DNA of 64,000 bases from Longibacter sp. (GCF_051155795.1 NZ_DAXETW010000086.1:43759-107758), one strand, 5' to 3'; counted from the first letter of the stretch, positions 39,937 to 53,751 are shown. Notes: a model not told the origin generated them from the sequence alone. Program-made: numbers and translations.

Positions 39937-41241
39937 TCACGCGAATTGAGCGGACTCCGTCGATCCTTCCATGGCCCCCGTCGACGCGGTACCGTCCGTA
40001 ATCACGTTCTTCACCTCGTCGAAGTACCCGGTGCCGACTTCGCGCTGGTGCTTCGTCGCGGTGTAACCGCGCTCTTCGGCGTCGAACTCGGCCTGCTGCA
40101 ATTCGGAGTAGGCCGCCATCCCGCGATCGCGGTAACCCTCTGCGAGATTGAACATGCTGAAGTTCAGCGCATGGAATCCGGCGAGCGTGACGAACTGGAA
40201 CTTGTACCCCATCGCCCCGATCTCCCGCTGGAAAGCCGCGATCTCATCATCGTTCAGATGCGCGCGCCAGTTGAAGGACGGTGAGCAGTTGTACGCGAGC
40301 ATCTTGTCCGGATACTCCTTGTGGATTGCCTCCGCGAACTCCCGCGCTTCCTGAAGGTCGGGCGTCGACGTCTCGAACCACAGCAGGTCCGCGTACGGGG
40401 CGTAGCTGAGGCTCCGGTTGATGGCGAGTTCGAGACCCGCGTTTACGCGATAGAAGCCCTCGCTCGTGCGCTCTTCGTCCTTGATAAACGGCCGGTCGCG
40501 GGCGTCTACGTCGCTCGTCAGAAGCTGGGCGCTGTCCGCATCGGTTCTCGCAATCACGAGGGTCGGCACCCCCATCACGTCCGCCGCCAGTCGTGCGGCA
40601 ATCAGAACCTGCTCGAATTGCTGCGTCGGCACAAGCACCTTTCCACCCAGGTGGCCGCACTTCTTCTCCGCCGCAAGCTGATCTTCGAAGTGAACCCCTG
40701 CCGCCCCCGCTTCGATCATCGACTTCATCAATTCGAACGCATGGAGGACGCCGCCGTGTCCTGCTTCTGCGTCTGCAACGATCGGCGCCATCCAGTAGAC
40801 CGAGTCGTCTCCCTCCGCGTGGTGGAGTTCGTCGGCGCGCTTGAGCGTGTTGTTGATGCGGCGAATGACGTCCGGAACGCTGTTCGATGCATACAGGCTC
40901 TGGTCCGGATACATTTGCCGGCTCAGGTTGGCGTCCGCCGCAACCTGCCAGCCGCTCAGGTAGATGGCCTTCAGCCCGGCCTTCACCTGCTGCATGGCCT
41001 GGTTGCCCGTCAGCGCGCCCAACGCGTTGACGTAGTCCTCGTCGTGCAGCAGGTGCCACAGCCGTGCGGCTCCCATTTCTGCGAGCGTATGTTCGACCTG
41101 GAAAGACCCGCGCAGGCGGACCACATCGGCGGCTGAATACGGACGCTCGATCCCCTGCCACCGCGGGTCGTCTGCCCACATGGCTTCAAGGTCGGCGATT
41201 TGTTCTTCCGTGGTTGGAGTGCCGTTCGGTTTTACGTCCAT
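39937..41241 (-). CDS. aceA: Isocitrate lyase
   Basis: [36 protein letters not shown]. Confidence 0.98.
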
Positions 41242-41343: not shown

Positions 41344-43092
41344 TCAGCAGCCGGAGTGCTTCAGCAGGAATTGCTTGTGGTCGTCCACGCCGTAAAGCTC
41401 GGACTTGCACGCCAGGAACGGTCGCATCTCGTCCTCCGTGAAGATGCGTTCTGCATCCTCTGCTGCTTTGCGGAACCGCTTCACGTGCGTCTTGACGGCC
41501 TCGTCGCCGTAGGTGGCGAAAAACTCACGCGCCTCATCCTCGATCTTCTCCAGTTCCTCGTTGAAAATGCGGGCGATCAGGTCCTTCGTGACGGCGGTGC
41601 CGTCGTCCAGGGTCACGCCGTGACGCAGCCACTGCCAGATCTGAGCACGCGAGATCTCGAACGTGGCGAGATCCTCCATCCGGTTATCCCAGGCCACAGC
41701 GCCGATGTCTGAGTTCCATCCTTTCATGTAGCCAATGGAAACGCGCACGTTGACCCGGATGCCCTCGAGCGTCTTCGGGCCGACGCCACCTTTCGGGAGC
41801 AAGTCCGGCTGTGCCGGGATGTCAGGGATCACGTCGCGCTGATTCTTCTTGCCATCCGCGGCTAGCTTCTCCTTGAACGGCTGCATCGCCGGGCCAATGA
41901 AATACGGGTGGGAAACCCAGCAGCCGTCGTGCCCGATTGACGCCTCAAATTCTTTGTCCGCGACGACGCCGGCGACCTGTTTCTCGCGAAGCTCTTCCGT
42001 TTTACCGGGCGTCTGTGGAGCCATGCCGCCCATCCCGAATGCGTTGTGCTTGTGGCACACGCGGATCAGCTGTTTCACGTACATCTCCATCCATGGCCGC
42101 TGAATGTTGATCCAGTTGCGATCGGCCAGGACGCGGTCATCATGCTCCTTCAGGACCTTGATGTCGCTGAAGATCTTGTCCCATCGTCCCCCGTTGAGAC
42201 CGGCCGCGTGATCCCGATACTCGTAGAGGATCTCTTCCATCTGAAAGGCGGCGGTCAGCGTTTCGATCAAGAACGTCGCCTTAAACGTCGTACGCGGAAT
42301 GTTGAGCGCATCCTGTACTGCTTCGAAAAGCCGGTTGAACCAGCGTGCCTCGAGGTAGTGTTCGACTTTCGGAACGTAGTACTTCGGCGTTTTGCCCTCA
42401 TCGATCAGCGTCCGCGCCGTGTGGTACGCCACCGCCGCCAGATCCAGCAATGCGCCCGAAACGGGGGTCCCGTCGACGCGCAGGTTCGATTCGTCGAGGT
42501 GGAGACCGCGAATACGGACCATGAGAAGCGGCATGTCGGCCGGATCGAGGCTGTAGTCCTTCGCCGGGCGACCCTTGGCGGCCGGCCGGGAATAGGTCAG
42601 CGTGCCGTCGGCCGCCTCCTTCACGTTTCGCAGGCCGGCCAGAACATTATCCCACGCCGGCTTCATCGAGTCCTCGAAATCCAGCATCGCCGCGTCGGCC
42701 ATCTCGCCGTCGTCGTTCCGACTCAGCATGTTGATGACCATTTTCGCATTGTTGACCGGCCCGGTGATCTCAACGCGCCGCTGAAGCAGATCATCCGGGA
42801 GCGGGGCAACCTGCCAGTCCCCTCTCGCCTCCGGGTGTTCGTCGTCGGAGAGAAAGCCGGGACGTTCGCCCGCATCGAACGCAGCCTGTCGGTCTGCTCG
42901 CGCCTCCAGCAGATCCTGGCGATCCGATTCCATCGACCGGTGAATGGACGCGATGATCGACACGAGTTCGTCGGGGAAAAGCTCGCGTGCCTCGTCGGTC
43001 CAGGCATTCGCGTTGATGTCCACGCCGTCCGTGACGGACGTCCATTCGACGCTGGAAGTGTATGCCGCGGCATCGGGCGTTGATAGTGCCAT
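41344..43092 (-). CDS. aceB: Malate synthase A
   Basis: RRVEITGP, DFEDS, FLIET, GRWD, MGGMA, MEDLATFEISRAQIWQW. Start at ATG 43092. Confidence 0.93.
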   Translation of the reverse strand: MALSTPDAAAYTSSVEWTSVTDGVDINANAWTDEARELFPDELVSIIASIHRSMESDRQDLLEARADRQAAFDAGERPGFLSDDEHPEARGDWQVAPLPDDLLQRRVEITGPVNNAKMVINMLSRNDDGEMADAAMLDFEDSMKPAWDNVLAGLRNVKEAADGTLTYSRPAAKGRPAKDYSLDPADMPLLMVRIRGLHLDESNLRVDGTPVSGALLDLAAVAYHTARTLIDEGKTPKYYVPKVEHYLEARWFNRLFEAVQDALNIPRTTFKATFLIETLTAAFQMEEILYEYRDHAAGLNGGRWDKIFSDIKVLKEHDDRVLADRNWINIQRPWMEMYVKQLIRVCHKHNAFGMGGMAPQTPGKTEELREKQVAGVVADKEFEASIGHDGCWVSHPYFIGPAMQPFKEKLAADGKKNQRDVIPDIPAQPDLLPKGGVGPKTLEGIRVNVRVSIGYMKGWNSDIGAVAWDNRMEDLATFEISRAQIWQWLRHGVTLDDGTAVTKDLIARIFNEELEKIEDEAREFFATYGDEAVKTHVKRFRKAAEDAERIFTEDEMRPFLACKSELYGVDDHKQFLLKHSGC

Positions 43093-43323
43093 GTCGTTAC
43101 CTGGGGTCAAAGAGAATACGGGCGGAAAAGAACCGGGCGTCACCGAAACGGCGCGTCATCGAGATCGGACATCGTCGAAACGGACCGTCACCGACCAGGC
43201 GCGGTCCCGCAAGGTTGGAACCGCTTCCATCCCGGTCTACGAGACGTGTGGCCGTTTGAACCACGTTGGCGTGCACGTGTCTTCATGCGATTCAAACAAT
43301 ACACGTTCACGCGATCTCTGTCA

Positions 43324-43593: not shown

Positions 43594-45120
43594 ATGGCTG
43601 TCAGCAGTGAAAACCTTCGATTCATCCTCGGCCTCAAGCTTCGAACGCTCCGGCAGGAACGGGGGGCCTCACTCAAGGATGTGGCCGAACGCTCCGGTCT
43701 CAGCATCTCTTACCTGAGTGAAATCGAGAAGGGGAAAAAGTACCCGAAGCCAGACAAAATCATCGACCTGGCGAACGCCCTTGGTGTTGCGTACGACGAC
43801 CTCGTGTCGATGTCGGTAACGGACGAACTCGATCCAATTAAGGAGGTCTTCTCCTCGACCTTCATCCAGGAGTTTCCGTTCGAGGTGTTCGGGCTGGAGC
43901 CGCAGGACGTCTTTGCCCTGGTGTCGGATCGTCCCTCCCGCGCCGGTGCCCTCATCCGGACCTTTCTGGAGATCGGGCGCACCTACGACATGCAGGTGGA
44001 GCACTTTCTCTTCGCCGCTCTCCGCTCCTACCAGCAGCTGCACGGCAACTACTTCGAGGAACTCGAGGAGATGGCGCAGGACTACCGCCGGCAGAAAGAG
44101 TGGGGCGCCGGCACGTCGATTCCTCACGAAGCGCTCTACGCGGTGCTCGTGGACGAGTACGACTACAGCGTCGACCTCAATACCCTTCCGGACCATCCCG
44201 AATTGTCCGGTTTTCGGTCCGTCTACGTCGACGGCGCGTCACCAACGCTGCTTCTGAACGGGGACCTGATGGACATACAGCGGGCCTTTATATACGCCCG
44301 CGAGATCGGCTATTGCCTGATGGACGTGGACGAACGGGCGCGGACATCGTCCTGGCTGAAGGTTGAAAGCTACGAACAGGTCCTCAATAATTTTCGCGCA
44401 TCCTATTTTGCCGGCGCGCTCCTGATCGACCGCGACCCGTTGCTTGAGCACCTCCGACGGATCTTCTCGCAGCCTCGCTGGGACGGCGACGCGCTACGCG
44501 AATGCATGGCCCGCTTCGACGCCACGCCGGAGATGTTCTACTACCGCCTGACGGAGGTCGTCCCGCACTTCTTCGGTCTGGACGACATCTTCTTCATGCG
44601 CTTCCACCACGACGCCGGATCGTCCGACTTTCAGCTGACAAAGCTGCTTAACATGTCTCAAGTGCCGGTTCCGCACGGCATCGGCCTGCGGGAGCATTAC
44701 TGCCGGCGATGGCCGGCGATGCGTTTGCTCGAGCGATTGTCCGATGAGCAGCACAACGGCGCCACGAGCCGAGAGCCGACGGCCCCGCCCCGCATCCGGG
44801 CGCAACGGTCGCACTATCTGAATGACGAAGCGGAGTTCTTCGTCCTTTCCTCGGCGCGCCCCCTTGCCCTTCAGCCAACGACCAATTCGTGCGTCTCGCT
44901 GGGCTTCCTGATCAATGACGACTTCAAGCGTCACGTCCAGTTCTGGAACGACGATAGCATCCCGCGGCTGGATGTCAACCTGACGTGCGAACGCTGCCCG
45001 TTATCCCCTGCTCAGTGCGAGGATCGGGTCGCACCGCCCACCCTGCACGAGGCGGAACGCTCGCAGCAGCGTCGCGAAAACGCCCTGGCTGAACTGACCG
45101 CCTCCATCCGCGACGCATGA
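43594..45120 (+). CDS. XRE-family short-chain acyl-CoA regulator (ScfR/RamB/PrpR-like)
   Basis: N-terminal HTH (SLKDVAERSGLSISYLSEIEKGKK), HYCRRW and CERC-x6-C Cys cluster; divergent from aceBA. Confidence 0.85.
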   Translation: MAVSSENLRFILGLKLRTLRQERGASLKDVAERSGLSISYLSEIEKGKKYPKPDKIIDLANALGVAYDDLVSMSVTDELDPIKEVFSSTFIQEFPFEVFGLEPQDVFALVSDRPSRAGALIRTFLEIGRTYDMQVEHFLFAALRSYQQLHGNYFEELEEMAQDYRRQKEWGAGTSIPHEALYAVLVDEYDYSVDLNTLPDHPELSGFRSVYVDGASPTLLLNGDLMDIQRAFIYAREIGYCLMDVDERARTSSWLKVESYEQVLNNFRASYFAGALLIDRDPLLEHLRRIFSQPRWDGDALRECMARFDATPEMFYYRLTEVVPHFFGLDDIFFMRFHHDAGSSDFQLTKLLNMSQVPVPHGIGLREHYCRRWPAMRLLERLSDEQHNGATSREPTAPPRIRAQRSHYLNDEAEFFVLSSARPLALQPTTNSCVSLGFLINDDFKRHVQFWNDDSIPRLDVNLTCERCPLSPAQCEDRVAPPTLHEAERSQQRRENALAELTASIRDA

Positions 45121-46394: not shown

Positions 46395-49283
46395 TCAAGG
46401 CGCACCGGGAAGTTCGTCCCCTTCCTCGAGCTTCGGCGATCCATCTCCTGCAACGGCCGTCCCCGTCGACGCGCCATCTCCGTGGGTGATCGCGGGCATG
46501 GCGGCCGCCGCGGGCCGATCCTCCGCCACCGCCGGATCAAGGCGCGGATCGTCCACGGTGGAAAGGTAGTCCCGGGCATCCGCGGGTGTCTTGATCTTCA
46601 AGTCGAAGTGTTTTTCGCCGTATTCGACCGCCTTCGCTCCGGACGGGTCGTCCAGCAGCGGAAGCAGAATCCGACTCATCGAATAGTCCACGAGGTTGTC
46701 TACGAACTCGATCGCGCTGGATCGTAGCGTCTGATCGTCGCTCGTCAGCCCGAGATAGGCATCGTACACGTCGCGTTGGTCGTACTGCAACCCGAGGAGA
46801 CGGAAGGTCCGTTCCAGACTGCGCTTCCGCGCTTCTCGTACAGCCGATCGGTCGGCCGCACCGAGCACGTCCCGGTTGGTGCGCTGAAGCAGATGCAGGA
46901 CCTGCCCGAGCGCGGCATACCGCTCGATTTCGCGCCGGACCGCACGTGCGATTTCTTCCGTCGAGAACGATCCATACCCCGATGCGTGGAGGCGACTCAG
47001 CGCGCGCACAATCGCGTGCTGAACGGGCACGGGGACGTCCGGCAGCGCAGCCACCAGCACCGTCATCGCCAGATCGTTCTGCAGGTCGGTCAGGATCCGT
47101 GGCACTTGAACGCGAACGTCCATGTTTACCCGGGCGTCTACCATCACGTCGTAAAGCGTCCCGAGAATTCGATCACCGAAAAGAGCCAACGCCTCCCGGG
47201 CCGCTTCTTCAAACCGCTCCTGCTTCAGGCGGACGAGGAGGGGATGAACGAACGCCCGCTCCCCACTCCGCCCGGCCGCCTGAATCGCGCCTTCGACGAC
47301 CTGATCCGACGGATCGAATAGAAGCGCGTGTAGCATCTCGATGCGATAGGGCCGGTCGATCACGCCCAGAATGCGCGCGACGTGCGTCCGGGCATCTTCG
47401 CCTGCTGCCCCCGGCACCTCCATCAGATGCCGAAGCGTTGCCTCGGTGATCAAGCGATACGTTTCCGGGCTGCCTTCCTCCGCGATCAGGCCGACAGCCG
47501 CTGCCCGAATGCGGACGTCGTCGTGTGCGAGGGCCTCCTTCAGCCGCTCGATCCGCTCCCCGCTCTGACAGTACAGGTACCGCGCTGCCTCGAGTTGAAC
47601 ATCCGGGTCCGGATCCGTCAGTGCTTCCACAATCTCGGCACCGAGACCCTCGACGGTACGCACGCGGAGAACACGAATGGCGTGGGCGCGGACTTCGGAA
47701 GAGTGATGATCAAAAAGGCACACGAGCGCGTCGACCGGCACCGTCTCCTCCCCTTCTTCAAGCTGCGTCAGCGCCGCGAGCGTTTCTCGCTCACTTCGGC
47801 TGCAGAGCGACTCAAGCAGTTCGTCCAGCGTTTCCGAGACACGGGCTTCCGCCTCGTCAGTCGAATCGTTTTCCTCCTGCCGGCGAAGACGTTTCCGAAA
47901 CTCATCCACATAGGATCGCCGGGCCAGGTAGGCGATGGTGCCCCAGCCCATGATAAGCACAGCAACCACGCCCCCGAGATCGGCGGTCGAAAAGCCGAGG
48001 ACGGCGGTGAAGAGCAGCAGGAGGCCGCCCGCCACTCCCTGCGCGCCCTGATCCACGAACAGATCGACGAACACCTTCACCTTTTTCTTCTTCTGTAGTG
48101 ACACGGGGACGAACAGCAGCTCACGACCCGTCTTGTCGATGCTATGCTTGAGCGTCTGGTCGGCCCCTCGCAGGGCCACGCCGGCGACGAGACCTGGGAC
48201 TAGGACCATCGCAATTGTGCCACCCGCGAGGGCCAGCGGAAGAACGGAGAGCGCGCCCCCGATACCCAGGACCCGGATGAGTCGGGGCGCGATGAGAAAC
48301 TGAACAACCAGCGCGACCAGGCTCACGCGACCGTAAAACCGACCCATGAAGGACGTCAGGGCGTCCTCGGCGGCAAAGGCCTGGGCGGCTACGGTCTTAA
48401 ACTGAAAATCGACGAACGTGGAGGTCACCACCATGATGGCGATCACCCCGACGATGAGTCGTAGGTGCCGCGAGTTACGAATGATACTCCAGGCTTCCCA
48501 GCTGCCGGAGGGACGCGCCGCCATCTGTGTCGACGCTTCATGCTCTTCCGCCGTGTGCGTCGCCTCCTCCGGGTCCGGCTCGCCATCGTTGACGGCAACG
48601 GCCCGCGTCGATTCATCCCTGTCACCGTCGACGGCTGTGGCGGACGAGGGGTACGTACCGCCATCGACCGTCCCCCCGCGATGGCGATGTCGTGCCCGAA
48701 TCCACCGGCTCAGCACAACCGACCCGACCAGCAGGAAGGAGGCGACGAACAGCAACGTACGGCTGTGGATTTCCGCGACATTGACGAGAAGACCCGTCAT
48801 CTCCCCGCCGGCGACGGCGCCGAGAATAGCACCTGCGCTCAGCACCGTGAAGACCCGCTTCGCCTGGGAGGCGCCGAAAATGGCGTTTGCGAGCAGCCAG
48901 AACTGCGACGTGACGAGCAGACTGAAAATGCTCACCCACGCATAGAGAAGATACGGGACCCACGAGGCCTCCGTCGTCAACAGCCAGTACAGTCCGACCA
49001 GATTAGCTGCAAGAAACAGCGTCACCCCGTCGACGAGCCGGCCAATCCGCATGGTCTGACCGACCCGAGTATGCAGGATAACGACCGGTACGACAAGCAC
49101 CGTCGTCAGAATGAACACATACGGCAGTTCTTCCGGCCCGCGTCCCGCCAGAAACAGGCTGTCCCGCACCGGCTTCAGCAGGTACAGGATGATCAGCAGG
49201 AGGAAGTGATAGGCGGCCATGAGCAGCGCCATTTCCCTCTCACCCTTCTGGAGGCCCAGCAATGATGCGAGAAGGCGTGCCAT
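46395..49283 (-). CDS. NTT/TLC (Npt1/Npt2-like ATP/ADP translocase) family transporter with C-terminal HEAT repeats
   Basis: About 12 TMs with LLKPVRDSLFL, SQFWLLAN..F...QAKR, DFQFK, KHSIDKTGRELLFVP; followed by HEAT-like repeats (LTDPDPDVQLEAARYL, LAHDDVRIRAAAVGL). Confidence 0.85.
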   Translation of the reverse strand: MARLLASLLGLQKGEREMALLMAAYHFLLLIILYLLKPVRDSLFLAGRGPEELPYVFILTTVLVVPVVILHTRVGQTMRIGRLVDGVTLFLAANLVGLYWLLTTEASWVPYLLYAWVSIFSLLVTSQFWLLANAIFGASQAKRVFTVLSAGAILGAVAGGEMTGLLVNVAEIHSRTLLFVASFLLVGSVVLSRWIRARHRHRGGTVDGGTYPSSATAVDGDRDESTRAVAVNDGEPDPEEATHTAEEHEASTQMAARPSGSWEAWSIIRNSRHLRLIVGVIAIMVVTSTFVDFQFKTVAAQAFAAEDALTSFMGRFYGRVSLVALVVQFLIAPRLIRVLGIGGALSVLPLALAGGTIAMVLVPGLVAGVALRGADQTLKHSIDKTGRELLFVPVSLQKKKKVKVFVDLFVDQGAQGVAGGLLLLFTAVLGFSTADLGGVVAVLIMGWGTIAYLARRSYVDEFRKRLRRQEENDSTDEAEARVSETLDELLESLCSRSERETLAALTQLEEGEETVPVDALVCLFDHHSSEVRAHAIRVLRVRTVEGLGAEIVEALTDPDPDVQLEAARYLYCQSGERIERLKEALAHDDVRIRAAAVGLIAEEGSPETYRLITEATLRHLMEVPGAAGEDARTHVARILGVIDRPYRIEMLHALLFDPSDQVVEGAIQAAGRSGERAFVHPLLVRLKQERFEEAAREALALFGDRILGTLYDVMVDARVNMDVRVQVPRILTDLQNDLAMTVLVAALPDVPVPVQHAIVRALSRLHASGYGSFSTEEIARAVRREIERYAALGQVLHLLQRTNRDVLGAADRSAVREARKRSLERTFRLLGLQYDQRDVYDAYLGLTSDDQTLRSSAIEFVDNLVDYSMSRILLPLLDDPSGAKAVEYGEKHFDLKIKTPADARDYLSTVDDPRLDPAVAEDRPAAAAMPAITHGDGASTGTAVAGDGSPKLEEGDELPGAP

Positions 49284-49402
49284 AGTGTGGAGCGGGAGTC
49301 GGCCGAGACGAAGAGTCGCTGCTTGAAGTCAATCCAACGAGGGCGTTGCAGGAAAAGGTTTCCCACGTGCGTGACGAAGCGGTCTCGTGGCGGGGCCTGC
49401 CG

Positions 49403-51217
49403 CTACTGCCGCTCGATGCCGACCACCCGGACTGCGTCCGGCTCGATGTCTGCGCGGTCAAACACGGATCGAACGTTCGGCGGCGGTGCGGGAGATGAGG
49501 GAACGTACACGTAGATGTCGACGGGCGGCGGCCGGACGATGTCGCACGCGTACACCGGCTGAATCTCGACCTTGACGACACGTCGATTCGGGCCGTTCGC
49601 CCCCTTGTCGTCCAGCCAGTCCACCATCGATCGGCTATCAGCCCGCAGAGGAACGACCGGCTCCGTCGCCTCCCCCTGCGCGATCACACGCTCGCTGTGC
49701 CGGAGGCGGTACCGGTACGATGTGCCGGCCGATTCGTGCAGACCGCCGTCGACGGACAGGTCGCTGAACCGAAGCATCGGCCCCTCTGCCGTTGTCAGGG
49801 CGAGCCGGAACCGGTCAAGCGGAGCCACACGGTGAAACCAGTACCGGCCCGTCATGTCGCGACGTTCGGCCAGGATGCGGAGCAGGTAGTCTTCCGCCTC
49901 CGGATTCGACATCTCCGCCGCATCGACGACCGCATCGAGATCCGCGTCGCTGAAGGCCATTACCTGCTTCGCGCCCCAGAAGGCATCGCGGCGCGTGAGT
50001 TTCTCGAACGCAGGATTCGGATACGTGGGGACCCACCGGCCCGGTTTAAATACGTCGGACCGCCAGTACCCCACGGACGGATACTGCGCCGTGCCGTCCT
50101 CATCCCACCACCAGAACGGAAACAATCCTCCGCTGACCAGGGCGAGCGGAATGAGGCGATGATCGATCATATACGCCTGCCCGTGGATCGGGCGGTGCGG
50201 TGCACCGGTGTTCGCACCAAGCGTGGAGCTCATATCCTGAACGTAGTGCTTAATGTACTCCTGGTCCGTGTAAACGGCCAGCGTATTTGCTGCCCGTCGA
50301 TCCGTATCGTTCAGCCAGGCGCTCAGCACCCGCAGACCGCGAAGCTCGCGACGATCCTCGTGCCGGACCCGGTCGTTCGGATCGTCCCCCCGTCGACCAC
50401 GAAAATTCCACGGCCCCAGCACCTGCCCGTCGACAAAGCGGCTCGCCATCACCCGGATCTTCCCATCGGCACGGCGCGGCTGGCCCTCGAGCACGGACTG
50501 GACGTCGTCCGGACGCATCGGTCGCCGGTCGTTTCCGTCCCGAACCGTCGCTTCCTCGCCGATCTGGATTTGATCCGGATGGAAATAAGCGATGGTGTTT
50601 TCCGGGACGTGATAGCCGGCCGCATGGAAGATCTTTGTCGCGATCACCTCGGCGGAAGAAGCCAGCTCCGGGTAGGCGGGCTTGTCGAACTTGAGCAGGT
50701 AGCGGACGCCTCGCGCGTCCTCGATGAAGAATCCGGACGCCGCGCCGACGGATTTTCCACGCCAGATCGTCCACGTCCCGGTCGTGTCAGGGCCGGCGTC
50801 CGGTCGACCGTCCGTATTCGGTCCAACCGCGAGTTCGTCCGGGCCCATGGGCCGGTAGTAGTGCCGCGGCTCCCACCAGCTGGATCGCGGTGGCTCATCG
50901 AAGACATTGACATTCACCGCTTCTCTCTCCCCGTCCGTCACGCCGGCCAGCGCGCCGATTTTCCGTCCTGTCCATGCCAGGTTGAGCGGCTTCTTGACCT
51001 GATGGAAGAGCGTCAGATCGACGCGATCCCAGTAAAAGTTCTGCTCGATTTCCCGGGGTTCAGGAATTGGGCGGCGATCGGGATCTTCCGTCTTGACCGG
51101 GCCGAGCGTGTACGGTCTCGACGAGCCGCAGCCACTCGCGGCGGCCGCAACGAGGACCAGCACGAGAAGCCAGCGGCCCGGTCCTACCGACAGGCGGGGA
51201 AGGAGCGAAGAAGCCAT
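49403..51217 (-). CDS. Lipoprotein with atypical (PI3K/HipA-like) kinase-fold motifs
   Basis: Lipobox AASG|C; GKSVGAASGF, YLLKFD, AEVIA, WLNDTDRRAAN, VQDMSSTLG. Confidence 0.72.
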   Translation of the reverse strand: MASSLLPRLSVGPGRWLLVLVLVAAAASGCGSSRPYTLGPVKTEDPDRRPIPEPREIEQNFYWDRVDLTLFHQVKKPLNLAWTGRKIGALAGVTDGEREAVNVNVFDEPPRSSWWEPRHYYRPMGPDELAVGPNTDGRPDAGPDTTGTWTIWRGKSVGAASGFFIEDARGVRYLLKFDKPAYPELASSAEVIATKIFHAAGYHVPENTIAYFHPDQIQIGEEATVRDGNDRRPMRPDDVQSVLEGQPRRADGKIRVMASRFVDGQVLGPWNFRGRRGDDPNDRVRHEDRRELRGLRVLSAWLNDTDRRAANTLAVYTDQEYIKHYVQDMSSTLGANTGAPHRPIHGQAYMIDHRLIPLALVSGGLFPFWWWDEDGTAQYPSVGYWRSDVFKPGRWVPTYPNPAFEKLTRRDAFWGAKQVMAFSDADLDAVVDAAEMSNPEAEDYLLRILAERRDMTGRYWFHRVAPLDRFRLALTTAEGPMLRFSDLSVDGGLHESAGTSYRYRLRHSERVIAQGEATEPVVPLRADSRSMVDWLDDKGANGPNRRVVKVEIQPVYACDIVRPPPVDIYVYVPSSPAPPPNVRSVFDRADIEPDAVRVVGIERQ

Positions 51218-51292
51218 AAACGGAGTTGCGGATAAGAAGAACGTTGGAGCGCGGCAATGCTCGACACCCCGGACCGGGGATTGACGAAGCGA

Positions 51293-52648
51293 TCAGAACA
51301 TTTGATTGACGGTCAGGATCGTTCGAAGGCCCTCCTCCCCGGTGGCGACTTCGAAACGAAACGCGAGGCGTCCTCCACGGATAACGCGAACGCCGCCCCC
51401 GTAACTGTAGTGGAACCGGTCGACGGCGATGCCTTCGAACTCGTTAAAGACCTGACCAGCGTCGACGAAAGCAACGGCATCCATTCGATTCCAGATTGGA
51501 TACTGGTACTCCGCGTTTGCCACGAGGGCGCCTTCCTCGACGTATCGTTCGAAGACCAGGCTACGTACTGTCGTCTGCCCCCCGATGCCTGGCAGGCGAA
51601 AGAACGGGACGGCCGCGCCGCCGCGGGCGGGCTCCACTTTTTCCATCCGTACCCGCAGGGCAAGACGGCGTGTCGACGGAAGGAACGGGAGCGGAAGATA
51701 CTGCTGGATTTCCGCGGCGTAGCCGACGTACCGGAAGGTGCCCCGACTGAGGTCTTCGGTCGCCTCCCCCTCCAGGCGAACGCGCGTTCCTCGGACGATG
51801 CGCTGCTGCTCGCGCGCGGTTCGGTCAATCGTCCACCCGGTGCGGGCCGTCAGCAAAGCGGTTGCGCGGCCCACGCCTGGCAGCGACACCGGCAGGCGGT
51901 CCCCCAGGTCTCCGTCGGCCCGTTTGTTGAACGTGCGCGAGGCCTCCACCTCGACGTCTCCAACCAACCGTTCCAATGGTTTCAACGTGAGGGTTGCACG
52001 CCCGGATAGCTGCCGCGTGAAGTATCTCGTTTCATCCCGTCGATCGGCCCGGTTCCCGCGGAGAAAATACCGCCGCTCGGGGTTGGTCAAAAACGTGGCG
52101 TTCACCGTAAGGGTCGTGTGCGGTCCGAAGACCGGACCAAAGCGATAGTCGAGGTCCACCTCGTACCGGCTTCGTGACCCGTAGATGAACGACAAACGGG
52201 CGTCGTGCCCGAGGCCCCAGAGGTCGTGGTCAAACACGGCGACACCGCCCTGGACACCCACGGGCCCGCCGAGTTCGACGAGCGGGAGCACGCCTTGCAC
52301 CGGGGCACGCGGCTCGAACAAGGCCGGGTATTCGCGCTCAAGGTACTTCACGCCCCATCCGATGGGCCGCGTCACGCCGTAGACGAGGTATGACGGCGCC
52401 GCCAGCGCGTGGGCCCAGACGCTTCGACTGGAGCGGTAGGGCACCGCGTTCGGATGCTGCGATTTCGACGACGAATCGGCCTCGACGACGTCGGCCGTGT
52501 CGCGAGCGGGAACCGTCGTCTGCGCGACCGTGGCATCAACCGTAAAAACGAGCAGCAACAGAATAAGCAGGCTGACCGTGCGCAGGCGCAACGACGAAAG
52601 CTCCACCAGAGGCGTCAGGCGGGCGACTCGGTCAAAACCGGGACGCAT
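51293..52648 (-). CDS. Omp85 (BamA/TamA) family outer-membrane beta-barrel protein, short with no clear POTRA domains
   Basis: Signal peptide, amphipathic strands, GGQTTVRS loop-6-like motif, EYQYPI, FVDAGQV, YGGGVR, terminal Phe. Confidence 0.82.
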   Translation of the reverse strand: MRPGFDRVARLTPLVELSSLRLRTVSLLILLLLVFTVDATVAQTTVPARDTADVVEADSSSKSQHPNAVPYRSSRSVWAHALAAPSYLVYGVTRPIGWGVKYLEREYPALFEPRAPVQGVLPLVELGGPVGVQGGVAVFDHDLWGLGHDARLSFIYGSRSRYEVDLDYRFGPVFGPHTTLTVNATFLTNPERRYFLRGNRADRRDETRYFTRQLSGRATLTLKPLERLVGDVEVEASRTFNKRADGDLGDRLPVSLPGVGRATALLTARTGWTIDRTAREQQRIVRGTRVRLEGEATEDLSRGTFRYVGYAAEIQQYLPLPFLPSTRRLALRVRMEKVEPARGGAAVPFFRLPGIGGQTTVRSLVFERYVEEGALVANAEYQYPIWNRMDAVAFVDAGQVFNEFEGIAVDRFHYSYGGGVRVIRGGRLAFRFEVATGEEGLRTILTVNQMF

Positions 52649-52850
52649 CGCGACGGGGCGGAACGCCGAGGGGAGGCTTGGTTGCACGGGGAAAAACGAG
52701 ACAAGTATGGTTGAAACCCGGAACGGTCGGTATCTGCATCGGTGCGTACAGCCGAAGTTCCCAGCGTTACAACGCTTGGACGTCCCGGCCCCCGTACCGA
52801 CCCGCCGCGCCTGCGTAACGACCGATTGATATACCGAACCATCACCGTAT

Positions 52851-53471
52851 ATGTCCTCCTCCGCTGTACCGCCCAACCCCGGTGAACTCCTCAACCGATT
52901 CGCCGAGCGTCACTGGAACTTGGCCGCTCGCCATGCCTGGCGCATGTACAACGAGCGGGGCCGCGGGGCAGTCGTCTTTCGCTCGAATGCAGACGGAGAA
53001 CGCGGACGCAAGCTCCCGCTGAATTACCTCACCTTCAAAGCGTCGAAGGAGGAAACGATGGGTACGCAACTGGAGATCGTGCGCCACCTGATCGATACCT
53101 ACGACCCCGAAAAGGAGGCCGTACTCGCTATTAACTTTCGGGACGGTACCACGGTCGTCGATGTATACAAGAAAGAGCCTGCCCCGCCCGACTGCGCCGT
53201 TCAGAACGGCCACTCCAACGAACCCGCACGGGATGCAGCCGATACGGACATGGTCGACTCGCCCGACGAGATCGAAGAGGTGAATGATCCCGACGGTGCT
53301 CGGGGCGACGGGGCGGCCGGCGACGAGCCGGGATTCGACGATCAGGGCAACCCCCTCCCTCCCGACGCGCCGAACAACGGCCCGGAGGATGAACCCGGCG
53401 GCGGCGATGACGACCACCCCGACCTGCCCGACTTCCTCGGCGACGACCCCGACGGCGGCGCGCTCGCCTGA
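52851..53471 (+). CDS. Hypothetical protein with D/G/P-rich acidic tail
   Basis: Globular-looking N-terminal ~105 aa, then a low-complexity acidic region. Confidence 0.7.
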   Translation: MSSSAVPPNPGELLNRFAERHWNLAARHAWRMYNERGRGAVVFRSNADGERGRKLPLNYLTFKASKEETMGTQLEIVRHLIDTYDPEKEAVLAINFRDGTTVVDVYKKEPAPPDCAVQNGHSNEPARDAADTDMVDSPDEIEEVNDPDGARGDGAAGDEPGFDDQGNPLPPDAPNNGPEDEPGGGDDDHPDLPDFLGDDPDGGALA

Positions 53472-53751
53472 CCGTCGTCGCACGGCGTTGCGCCCGTCCC
53501 TGCTCTGCCATATCTGACAGGGGACGGCCGACCCGGGGCTGCCACACCGACCGACGATTCTGCCGTTTCGTCCGCCCCTCCCGGCGGATGAGACGGCTTT
53601 TCTATGCTTTGTGAAGAAATATTGGGTGGGCCGACTCTCTGGATCGGTTGGGTACGCCGTTTGTGTGGGCGCCGAATCGCAACGGCAGCGGACGGTCTCC
53701 GGCTGTTGCATGACCTATCCCCTGTGGTTTCATCAATGATCGAACCGAAGA

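Follow-up and report, generated by a model that had tools for sequence, protein, structure and literature searches.

Introduction

In eukaryotes the ER/Golgi ATP/ADP exchanger SLC35B1/AXER feeds kinases of the secretory pathway such as Fam20C, the Golgi casein kinase. The bacterial periplasm is thought to be without ATP, and periplasmic ATP would be expected to leak via porins. At the outer membrane BamA binds lipoproteins, for example BamD and RcsF. Omp85 proteins without POTRA domains, the 'noNterm' proteins, have been described (Heinz and Lithgow, 2014, PMC4104836). The characterised NTTs of parasites bring nucleotides in, and an NTT-HEAT clade has been catalogued with its function unknown and with linkage to Omp85 or kinase-lipoprotein genes unmentioned; a cNMP-binding domain adjacent to or fused with NTT-HEAT is frequent in this clade, though not obligatory (Major, Embley and Williams, 2017, PMC5381601).

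Here we describe a unit of three genes encoding an Omp85-family barrel, a lipoprotein predicted to have a kinase fold and a putative NTT-HEAT carrier, which suggests, without proving, ATP-dependent chemistry in the periplasm. No published description of this three-gene module was found in the literature searched. The host of the unit, Longibacter sp., is a salt-lake bacterium.

Organisation of the locus

The stretch of DNA that was analysed, referred to here as the window, is 64,000 nucleotides long. Three co-oriented open reading frames are read on its minus strand at 51293-52648, 49403-51217 and 46395-49283, with exactly 75 and 119 bp between them. This is the arrangement that a first-pass annotation of the sequence had reported, and its coordinates were verified; the observation is real, while the interpretation placed on it, a nucleotide exporter fuelling an envelope kinase partnered or translocated by the barrel, is partly supported and withstood every refuting test that could be applied to it. 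The features of the unit are as follows.

51293..52648, minus strand: POTRA-less Omp85-family barrel of 451 aa, start codon ATG at 52648 (Pfam Omp85, NCBIfam Omp85_fam, AF2 model)
52316..52420, minus strand: periplasmic helix (residues 77-111) N-terminal to the barrel strands, where the kinase is predicted mainly to dock (model DSSP, complex interface 65-111)
49403..51217, minus strand: lipoprotein with predicted kinase fold, 604 aa (fold matches; no sequence-family match)
51128..51130, minus strand: codon of the lipobox Cys30 (invariant in alignment A1; lipobox-like motif in 107/120 orthologues)
50690..50692, minus strand: codon of Lys176, the beta3 lysine equivalent (invariant in the kinase alignments; end of model strand 172-176)
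50234..50302, minus strand: catalytic loop D306-x4-N311 and metal-binding Asp328 (invariant in alignments A1 and A3)
47874..49283, minus strand: NTT/TLC-type transporter domain, residues 1-470 (Pfam TLC, TIGR00769, hydropathy profile)
46584..47846, minus strand: C-terminal HEAT-repeat domain, about residues 480-900 (Pfam HEAT_2, 3.7e-14)
52649..52850, no strand assigned: divergent intergenic region, presumed promoter region of the unit (sequence read)

The upstream boundary of the unit is a divergent plus-strand reading frame at 52851-53471, which is closed by a strong terminator at 53562-53597, and the downstream boundary is the gene for a LexA-like S24 peptidase. Reading the sequence of 52649..52850 identified no promoter. 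Neither intergenic gap holds a terminator-like site, the minus-strand matches all being intragenic, and no Metallophos, PAP2 or cNBD genes lie beside the unit in the 64,000-nt window.

The outer-membrane barrel

The first protein is a member of the Omp85 superfamily, as had been proposed, matching the Pfam Omp85 profile (PF01103) at 3.6e-11, its 43.6 bits exceeding the cut-off of 24, and the NCBIfam Omp85_fam profile at 2.7e-15. A signal peptide and a disordered linker precede a long helix (77-111) and 16 strands (118-447), all 16 of which are formed in the AF2 model (pLDDT 84), and the nearest solved folds are the barrels of TamA and BamA (E 2e-15). There is no Pfam match to POTRA, and in the model only the helix 77-111 stands ahead of strand 1. 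Membership of the BamA, TamA and TpsB subfamilies, which have one to five N-terminal POTRA domains, is thus ruled out; against the NCBIfam TamA equivalog the barrel scores 14 bits for a cut-off of 625.

The kinase-fold lipoprotein

The 604-aa middle protein matches no Pfam or NCBIfam family at E ≤ 0.1, and a profile search against PDB sequences returned nothing at E ≤ 10. It represents a new sequence family, which comprises 4104 clusters at 50% identity, and the absence of a Pfam or NCBIfam profile match rules out PI3_PI4_kinase, HipA, CotH and Fam20C as its named family. The protein starts with a signal peptide ending in A-A-S-G-C30, where Cys30 is invariant among the 26 orthologues of alignment A1 and G29 is at least 90% conserved; with a lipobox-like motif also present in 107 of 120 orthologues, the protein carries a lipoprotein signal and is predicted to be lipidated. 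Cys30 is followed by a conserved N-terminal segment (31-110), a kinase core (~134-465) and an FN3/Ig-like sandwich (464-575).

The AF2 model (pTM 0.80) resembles atypical kinases, the best matches being CtkA (Z 13.5, rmsd 3.7 over 223 aligned residues), PI4KIIα (12.7), Fam20C (12.6) and CotH (12.4), with actin-fragmin kinase and HipA also found. In all, 14 atypical kinases align across some 220-260 residues at Z 13.5 to 10.2, clearly separated from the unrelated structures that come next, and Foldseek returns the same kinase families. Lys176, which closes model strand 172-176 and precedes the helix 185-199, together with Asp306, Asn311 and Asp328, is invariant in alignments A1 and A3 down to 33% identity, and all four residues are intact in 118/120 orthologues and in nearly all copies at the loci surveyed. 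Around Asp328 the family consensus is I-D-F-G-S-T-L-G, while the alphaC residue Glu190 varies among the kinase copies and is not strictly conserved. With a bilobal fold, the lysine, the Asp-x4-Asn loop and the metal-binding aspartate all present in the model, the protein can be assigned to the protein-kinase-like (PKL) fold, and the lipobox and kinase motifs noted at first pass are borne out, with the active site intact and an export and lipidation signal present. ATP-dependent phosphotransfer would be its putative activity.

Predicted docking of the kinase on the barrel

Prediction of the complex between the kinase and the barrel gave a score of 0.76, compared with 0.00 for the best of 3 controls, which favours the proposed partnership. 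Of 80 solved complexes 58 attained this mark, and of 110 mismatched pairs 2 did, counts that are only approximate because our own alignments were used. The runs agreed in at least 77% of contacts with a partner pLDDT of at least 87, and, as no structure is solved for the partner's family, recall of a known complex by the predictor is unlikely. On the barrel the interface comprises residues 65-111, 281, 323-327, 383-391 and 420, which by strand parity fall on the N-terminal helix and the turns after even-numbered strands, that is on the periplasmic face. The kinase catalytic residues lie outside the interface, and its conserved N-terminus, which is of low confidence when modelled alone, touches the barrel in the complex. 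It would seem from the model that the kinase docks under the barrel, on the periplasmic side. A search for fusions of the kinase to Omp85, which had been put forward as a check, found none; one natural kinase-PAP2 fusion, located behind an Omp85 gene, turned up instead.

The carrier

The third protein, of 962 aa, has TLC and HEAT_2 domains on one chain, as first annotated. The TLC match (PF03219, 7.2e-07) scores 28.8 bits against a Pfam cut-off of 21, with only residues 93-173 aligning, and the hydropathy profile shows an MFS 6+6 arrangement whose central loop (196-272) is long and acidic. By the Pfam gathering score the protein is assigned to the TLC/NTT transporters, and by the fusion of an N-terminal NTT to HEAT repeats it is of the NTT-HEAT type. 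Identification with the NTP/NDP exchange transporters of TIGR00769 was rejected, the match over residues 87-448 scoring 29.3 bits, far below the equivalog cut-off of 387; the NTT domain is thus a remote member of the family. The HEAT domain is probably cytoplasmic and regulatory.

Conservation of the unit

The families were followed through 80 kinase loci from more than 10 phyla, including Bacteroidota, Latescibacterota, KSB1, Zixibacteria, Nitrospirota, Gemmatimonadota and Planctomycetota, and their synteny holds across phyla. An Omp85 gene is directly upstream of the kinase gene in 65/72 loci. Of 65 loci, 44 have a TLC gene no more than 8 kb from the kinase, and in 22 it is directly downstream, with its order and orientation relative to the kinase varying between loci; about a third (21/65) have no TLC gene within 8 kb, and all three distant Sec-type active kinases lack one within 8-10 kb. 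Because it recurs in more than 10 phyla the arrangement is far beyond chance. Amongst the recurrent neighbours are lipoprotein Metallophos genes (8+8 loci), PAP2 (17) and cNMP_binding (18), a small cNMP-binding gene following the NTT-HEAT gene in related loci.

The predicted co-occurrence of kinase and carrier was also found, TLC being present in every kinase-bearing genome tested against a background of ~3-5%. Of 201 Bacteroidota genomes, 3 carry the kinase and 9 carry TLC; in each of the 3, a TLC gene adjoins the kinase gene. Among 151 Nitrospirota genomes the figures are 2 and 9, with TLC near the kinase in both, immediately following it in one (G349) and ~9 kb off in the other (G204). Where the locus has no carrier, TLC is found elsewhere in the genome in 5/5 cases. 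NTT-HEAT genes are also found where there is no kinase: in 6 of the 9 TLC-positive Bacteroidota genomes, as well as beside unrelated genes. The carrier is therefore not dedicated to this kinase.

A second Omp85 barrel in the same genome is paired with a pseudokinase that lacks a lipobox and carries K176R, D306G, N311R and D328N; no carrier is found up to ~9 kb away. At three more pseudokinase loci an Omp85 gene is likewise present, and TLC is absent to a distance of 10 kb. The contrast with active kinases is weakened by the active kinases that are themselves without a nearby carrier (21/65 loci and the 3/3 distant Sec-type). The pseudokinases are also close kin, which weakens it further.

Discussion

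We favour, at a little short of an even chance, a reading in which the three genes form one envelope module. The POTRA-less barrel, with its single N-terminal helix, would hold the lipoprotein on its periplasmic face, the lipoprotein being anchored in the outer membrane with its atypical-kinase fold intact. The NTT-family carrier would sit in the inner membrane with a cytoplasmic HEAT domain, functionally tied to the kinase-barrel complex, and would most probably exchange ATP outwards for ADP inwards, giving the periplasmic kinase its nucleotide. In relatives, the small cNMP-binding protein would be likely to gate the carrier and the lipoprotein metallophosphoesterases and PAP2 phosphatases to erase or recycle the product, so that an envelope substrate, lipid or protein, may undergo a regulated cycle of phosphorylation. 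The location of the kinase at the outer membrane, away from the carrier, speaks against this mechanism, as do the leakage via porins expected of periplasmic ATP, the remote place of the carrier in the NTT family, the kinase loci lacking a nearby TLC gene and the NTT-HEAT genes found apart from the kinase.

Other readings would account for parts of these data. The carrier may import nucleotides, as characterised parasite NTTs do (PMC5381601), with the exported enzymes binding or processing extracellular nucleotides or organophosphates in the periplasm and the barrel acting as anchor or entry site. The recurrence of lipoprotein calcineurin-like phosphoesterases and PAP2 proteins, with their likeness to nucleotidases and acid phosphatases of the periplasm, would fit such scavenging, as would the NTT-HEAT genes found without a kinase. 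It is nevertheless distinctly unlikely: the phosphotransfer residues are fully kept in the carrier-linked lineage and the four pseudokinase loci have no nearby carrier, a pattern better explained by catalysis that requires a phosphate donor than by mere binding. The hosts are free-living with full metabolism, and the barrel models as a standard TamA/BamA type; we know of no Omp85 barrels that act as solute channels. Similarly improbable is that the barrel is a dedicated translocator, as in two-partner secretion or Slam, moving the kinase to the surface or beyond to act on external targets, with a regulatory or indirect link to the carrier. CtkA, Fam20C and CotH do act outside the cytoplasm, the Omp85 and cargo genes are the most conserved core (65/72), also where no carrier is near, and the conserved kinase N-terminus that is poorly modelled alone contacts the barrel; yet there is neither POTRA nor TPS domain, the complex model has a folded kinase on the periplasmic turns and no threaded chain, extracellular ATP would be even scarcer than periplasmic ATP, and the linkage to the carrier across phyla is left unexplained.

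That linkage is accommodated if the kinase-fold protein mainly binds or hydrolyses ATP from the carrier to energise or gate insertion or transport by the Omp85 barrel, rather than serving chiefly as a kinase for substrates of its own. A stable complex is predicted, lying at the periplasmic mouth where POTRA domains would be, and pseudokinases retain their barrel partner, which shows that there is a structural role apart from catalysis. Such a machine is without precedent, however, and the recurrent Metallophos and PAP2 genes and the kinase-PAP2 fusion better fit a cycle of phosphorylation and dephosphorylation, making it very unlikely. Already disfavoured, and hardly credible, is that the genes lie together without functional consequence, or that the lipoprotein is purely structural and inactive: gene neighbourhood is what connects the genes, but the linkage recurs in more than 10 phyla with shuffled gene order, the catalytic residues are invariant and co-occurrence stands above a ~3-5% background.

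A wider form of the envelope-module reading, that some free-living diderms run a regulated periplasmic ATP economy, with HEAT/cNMP-gated export of ATP for ADP by NTTs, a kinase docked at the outer membrane and reversal of the mark by lipoprotein phosphoesterases and PAP2 proteins, seems rather unlikely. If true, it would provide a new route for bringing energy to the outer membrane and make such modules the bacterial equivalent of the kinases that work in the eukaryotic secretory pathway.

Comparison with known systems

The barrel shares 16 strands with BamA and TamA and the lack of POTRA domains with the noNterm proteins (PMC4104836), differing in its single N-terminal helix and in a dedicated, predicted partner, the kinase-fold lipoprotein. 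As in TpsB/TpsA two-partner secretion and PlpD (patatin-Omp85), an Omp85-family barrel is coupled genetically to one enzyme or cargo; here, in contrast, POTRA, TPS domain and fusion are all absent and the enzyme is modelled as folded on the periplasmic face. The carrier has the N-terminal TLC/NTT and C-terminal HEAT domains of the NTT-HEAT proteins (PMC5381601), and in related loci a cNMP-binding gene follows, in keeping with the description of that clade, whereas in the window no cNBD gene adjoins the carrier. With the group of CtkA (Helicobacter pylori, PDB 3akj), HipA, PI4KIIα, CotH and actin-fragmin kinase, the lipoprotein shares its fold (Z 13.5 to 11), the lysine, the Asp-x4-Asn loop and a DFG-like aspartate, and its I-D-F-G-x-x-L-G consensus resembles the PI3/4-kinase motif. 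Sequence homology to this group is not detectable, and the lipoprotein has further features of its own: a lipobox, a conserved N-terminal docking segment of 80 aa, an FN3-like domain at the C-terminus and an Omp85 gene as obligate partner. The Fam20C system is alike in having an atypical kinase outside the cytosol with a dedicated nucleotide antiporter, the function of the latter being our inference here, and Fam20C itself matches at Z 12.4-12.6. Sequence kinship is lacking (no Pfam Fam20C match), the carrier is of NTT/TLC and not SLC35 type, and the kinase is a lipoprotein that, according to the model, docks on an Omp85 barrel.

Organisation of the three-gene locus

The window comes from a 4.0-Mb draft genome that is 87% complete. 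Three minus-strand genes, separated by gaps of 75 and 119 bp, lie between a LexA-like S24 gene on the downstream side and, on the upstream side, a divergent open reading frame and terminator followed by groES-groEL:

46395-49283, minus strand: NTT/TLC-HEAT carrier (TLC 28.8 bits, cut-off 21; HEAT_2 3.7e-14)
49403-51217, minus strand: kinase-fold lipoprotein (no Pfam or NCBIfam match)
51293-52648, minus strand: Omp85 barrel (Pfam Omp85 3.6e-11)
52851-53471, plus strand: 206-aa ORF, divergent from the Omp85 gene (no Pfam match)
53562-53597: strong terminator with a 15-bp stem, 3' of the 206-aa plus-strand ORF

The spacing, the shared strand and the Pfam matches bear out the co-oriented trio described in the first-pass annotation. 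No terminator-like site was found in either intergenic gap, all of the minus-strand matches being intragenic. Because of these uninterrupted gaps, and because the module is bounded by the divergent ORF and the LexA-like gene, it looks from the sequence like a three-gene operon. A scan for sigma-70 promoters, whose coverage does not extend to those of Bacteroidota, gave no more matches than were seen in shuffled sequence. A 289-aa ORF at 52842-53711 on the minus strand, considered as a fourth gene, was rejected as spurious, as it is rich in Arg, Gly and Val and antisense to the plus-strand ORF. The window also carries glyoxylate-shunt genes, isocitrate lyase (39937-41241, minus strand) and malate synthase (41344-43143, minus strand), beside which lies a divergent gene for an HTH and M78-peptidase (IrrE-like) regulator (43594-45120, plus strand).

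The lipoprotein has the fold of an atypical kinase

The 604-residue product of the middle gene starts with a signal peptide followed by a lipobox, the Cys30 of which is invariant amongst 26 orthologues; a lipobox-like motif is present in 107 of 120. In the AF2 model (pLDDT 75, pTM 0.80) the protein is seen in three parts: a highly conserved N-terminal segment modelled with low confidence (residues 31-110), a bilobal core (residues about 134-465) and an FN3/Ig-like sandwich (residues 464-575). In an exhaustive structural search the top matches were atypical kinases, CtkA (Z 13.5) and PI4KIIα (12.7), with Fam20C (12.6), CotH (12.4), actin-fragmin kinase (11.9), HipA (11.0) and MavQ (10.9) also matched, and Foldseek returned the same families. 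Residues Lys155, Gly158 and Gly162 of the Gly-rich loop, Lys176 at the end of beta3, the D306-x4-N311 motif and Asp328, within the consensus I-D-F-G-S-T-L-G, are invariant down to 33% identity, while Glu190 of alphaC varies. The kinase motifs and lipobox that had been read from the sequence thus stand, and the exported kinase is apparently active, as judged from these residues. A profile search of PDB sequences found no relatives of the kinase amongst solved proteins. The family is large, with 4104 clusters at 50% identity at E <= 1e-3 and 1502 at E <= 1e-30. All of its named members are labelled 'hypothetical protein', the closest being from Longibacter salinarum (72% identity), a match that makes the Rhodothermales the probable order of the source organism.

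The kinase is predicted to dock beneath the barrel

In the model of the Omp85 protein (pLDDT 84) a signal helix and a disordered linker lead into a single long helix (77-111), which is followed by 16 strands; no POTRA domain is present. TamA and BamA barrels are the nearest solved folds. Prediction of a complex between the mature barrel and the mature lipoprotein, proposed in the first-pass annotation as a check, gave a score of 0.76, against 0.00 for the best of three controls. Of 80 solved complexes 58 attained such a score, and so did 2 of 110 mismatched pairs; the counts are rough because our own alignments were used. The prediction runs share at least 77% of contacts, with a partner pLDDT of at least 87. 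The result supports binding of the kinase by the barrel, though it does not show it.

The predicted interface on the barrel is formed by the N-terminal helix (65-111) and positions 281, 323-327, 383-391 and 420. These map to the turns that follow even-numbered strands in the strand order of the model, a parity from which we infer that the interface lies on the periplasmic face, so that the model supports a complex there. On the kinase the interface would involve the conserved N-terminal segment (37-82, 101-110), residues 344-372 and part of the invariant D-P-N-D-R-V-x-H motif (281-288), with the catalytic residues outside it. We read the model as a lipoprotein whose anchor would sit in the inner leaflet of the outer membrane, with the protein docked beneath its barrel.

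The linkage is conserved across phyla

Relatives were sought by a pattern scan with one genome per species, which found at least 480, and 80 loci were kept. They include Rhodothermales, Balneolales, Ignavibacteria, Cytophagia, Latescibacterota, KSB1, Zixibacteria, Calditrichota, Nitrospirota, Gemmatimonadota, Planctomycetota, Marinimicrobia, Krumholzibacteriia, Acidobacteriota and others, with the cultured organisms Salinibacter altiplanensis, Aliifodinibius salipaludis and Fodinibius roseus amongst the related loci. When scored with HMMs derived from these loci, 65 of the 72 that extend far enough upstream have an Omp85 gene immediately before the kinase, and a TLC-family gene is within 8 kb in 44/65, so that the synteny of the three families expected for a functional module is indeed conserved. 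The TLC genes encode a short NTT (about 445 aa), an NTT-HEAT (about 900-1000 aa) or both, told apart by length only, since whole-protein rows had contaminated the 'HEAT' HMM. In 22/65 loci the TLC gene comes immediately downstream of the kinase, while elsewhere it is upstream or on the other strand; as gene order is shuffled while linkage is kept, this argues for selection. A 442-aa MFS protein beside a distant kinase pair was rejected as an NTT by our HMM. A kinase-Omp85 fusion had also been looked for, and a search for longer kinase forms, which is weak evidence, found none.

Amongst 201 evenly sampled genomes of Bacteroidota, the window's phylum, the kinase was present in three and TLC in nine, with TLC beside the kinase in 3/3. 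In 151 Nitrospirota genomes the kinase was found in two and TLC in nine, with TLC near the kinase in both: directly after it in G349, and some 9 kb from it in G204. With the two centre genomes left out, TLC accompanied the kinase in 3/3 genomes as against 13/347 without it, kin not being independent in this comparison. Genomes with no carrier at the kinase locus had TLC elsewhere in 5/5 cases, two of these within 10-40 kb. The expected co-occurrence therefore holds in one direction: TLC is found in all of the kinase genomes checked, but the reverse is not the case. NTT-HEAT genes, with or without a cNBD, also occur beside unrelated genes in kinase-less genomes, and the carrier is not dedicated to the kinase.

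NTT-HEAT also recurs in another setting, an nSTAND1-WD40 neighbourhood. The kinase-less Bacteroidota genome G111 has two genes for NTT-HEAT-cNBD fusions (about 1050-1062 aa; L091:7981-15546 and L092:8228-17372), and after each of them comes an nSTAND1-WD40 NTPase, at L092 with a TIR/DUF4062 gene in between; next comes an OMP beta-barrel gene at L091 and, at the corresponding place in L092, a 359-aa ORF. In another genome (G163, L093:7094-15096) the genes on either side of NTT-HEAT encode two Beta-lactamase2-family proteins and one of 963 aa that contains a PPDK_N (AMP/ATP-binding) domain. In the window's own genome a short NTT (G000:C123:8406-9959, TLC 3e-23) follows a small CBM48 protein and is not near the kinase loci.

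A pseudokinase paralogue and recurrent neighbours

A second Omp85 barrel and kinase-like pair is encoded on another contig of the same genome (G000:C5:3840-7090, minus strand). The kinase-like protein, 35% identical to that of the window, carries the substitutions K176R, E190G, D306G, N311R and D328N, has lost the Gly loop and has a Sec signal in place of the lipobox; no carrier is encoded in the surrounding 9 kb or so. Most of the relatives of this protein in Salinibacteraceae and Rhodothermales are likewise degenerate; among the matches listed, 63/119 are degenerate and 5/119 have a lipobox. Three degenerate members have the barrel gene in 3/3 cases and TLC within 10 kb in 0/3. The contrast is at most suggestive, in members that are close kin, of a carrier needed only where ATP is used. 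A strict rule that active kinases have carriers and pseudokinases do not was rejected, as three distant active Sec-type members have no carrier nearby.

Clustering of the remaining ORFs at the loci revealed further recurrent members, signalling proteins amongst them. Calcineurin-like phosphoesterases form two groups (8 + 8 loci), all with lipoprotein signals and many directly after the kinase, and PAP2 proteins occur in 17 loci beside the barrel or the kinase. On a single metagenome contig an active-type kinase core is fused to a PAP2 domain (P0262, 782 aa; L096:2249-5976) that keeps the P-S-G-H and R-x5-H-x3-D motifs, the fusion gene lying behind an Omp85-like gene. The window's genome has, at G000:C5:73052-74125 and away from the kinase loci, a PAP2 gene of the type associated with the cluster (4e-70 to the cluster model). 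A 143-aa cNMP-binding protein with no signal peptide follows NTT-HEAT in 18 loci, the placement described by Major et al, 2017 (PMC5381601). Another recurrent feature, seen close to the kinase-barrel pair in Latescibacterota and related loci, is the presence of large proteins that carry a T9SS sorting domain at the C terminus (L028, L033, L034, L036, L040, L047, L050, L064, L066 and L069).

Discussion

In textbook accounts the periplasm and the outer membrane are ATP-free and, because they are held to be so, all outer-membrane processes known to us are explained without ATP. The widespread module seen here, of which a full-text literature search found no description, links homologues of ATP/ADP carriers to a kinase that is exported and apparently active. 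As proposed in the first-pass annotation, the carrier would exchange cytoplasmic ATP for periplasmic ADP and so fuel the kinase. Exchange in this direction would be thermodynamically natural for an antiporter if the cell produces its own ATP. The kinase would phosphorylate a lipid or protein of the envelope; given the PAP2 association, we lean towards a membrane-bound phosphate ester. The phosphoesterase and PAP2 proteins might then reverse or recycle the phosphate mark, and the HEAT domain, cytoplasmic if general MFS topology applies, may with the cNBD gate the carrier from that side.

There are four main objections to this mechanism. The carrier is a remote and uncharacterised NTT, scoring 29 bits against an NTP/NDP exchanger model with a cut-off of 387; it also occurs without the kinase; about a third of kinase loci have no nearby carrier; and ATP in the periplasm should leak through porins. 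A PDB sequence search with the NTT domain gave no match. The carrier might instead import nucleotides for scavenging. The barrel and kinase could alternatively be a dedicated secretion pair, or the whole an ATP-driven Omp85 machine. Were the module to work as proposed, the assumption of an ATP-free periplasm would be overturned for many environmental phyla. POTRA-less Omp85 proteins, and a large family whose members are now labelled hypothetical, would acquire defined roles, and there would be a testable function for the NTT-HEAT carriers of free-living bacteria, which have long gone uncharacterised. As the module is present in S. altiplanensis, A. salipaludis and F. roseus, with a kinase homologue in L. 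salinarum, it can be tested directly in cultured organisms.

NTT-HEAT proteins have been catalogued with function unknown (Major et al, 2017; PMC5381601). The window's barrel fits the POTRA-less 'noNterm' class of Omp85 proteins (Heinz & Lithgow, 2014; PMC4104836). In BamA it is the POTRA domains that occupy the place where the kinase lipoprotein is predicted to dock here.
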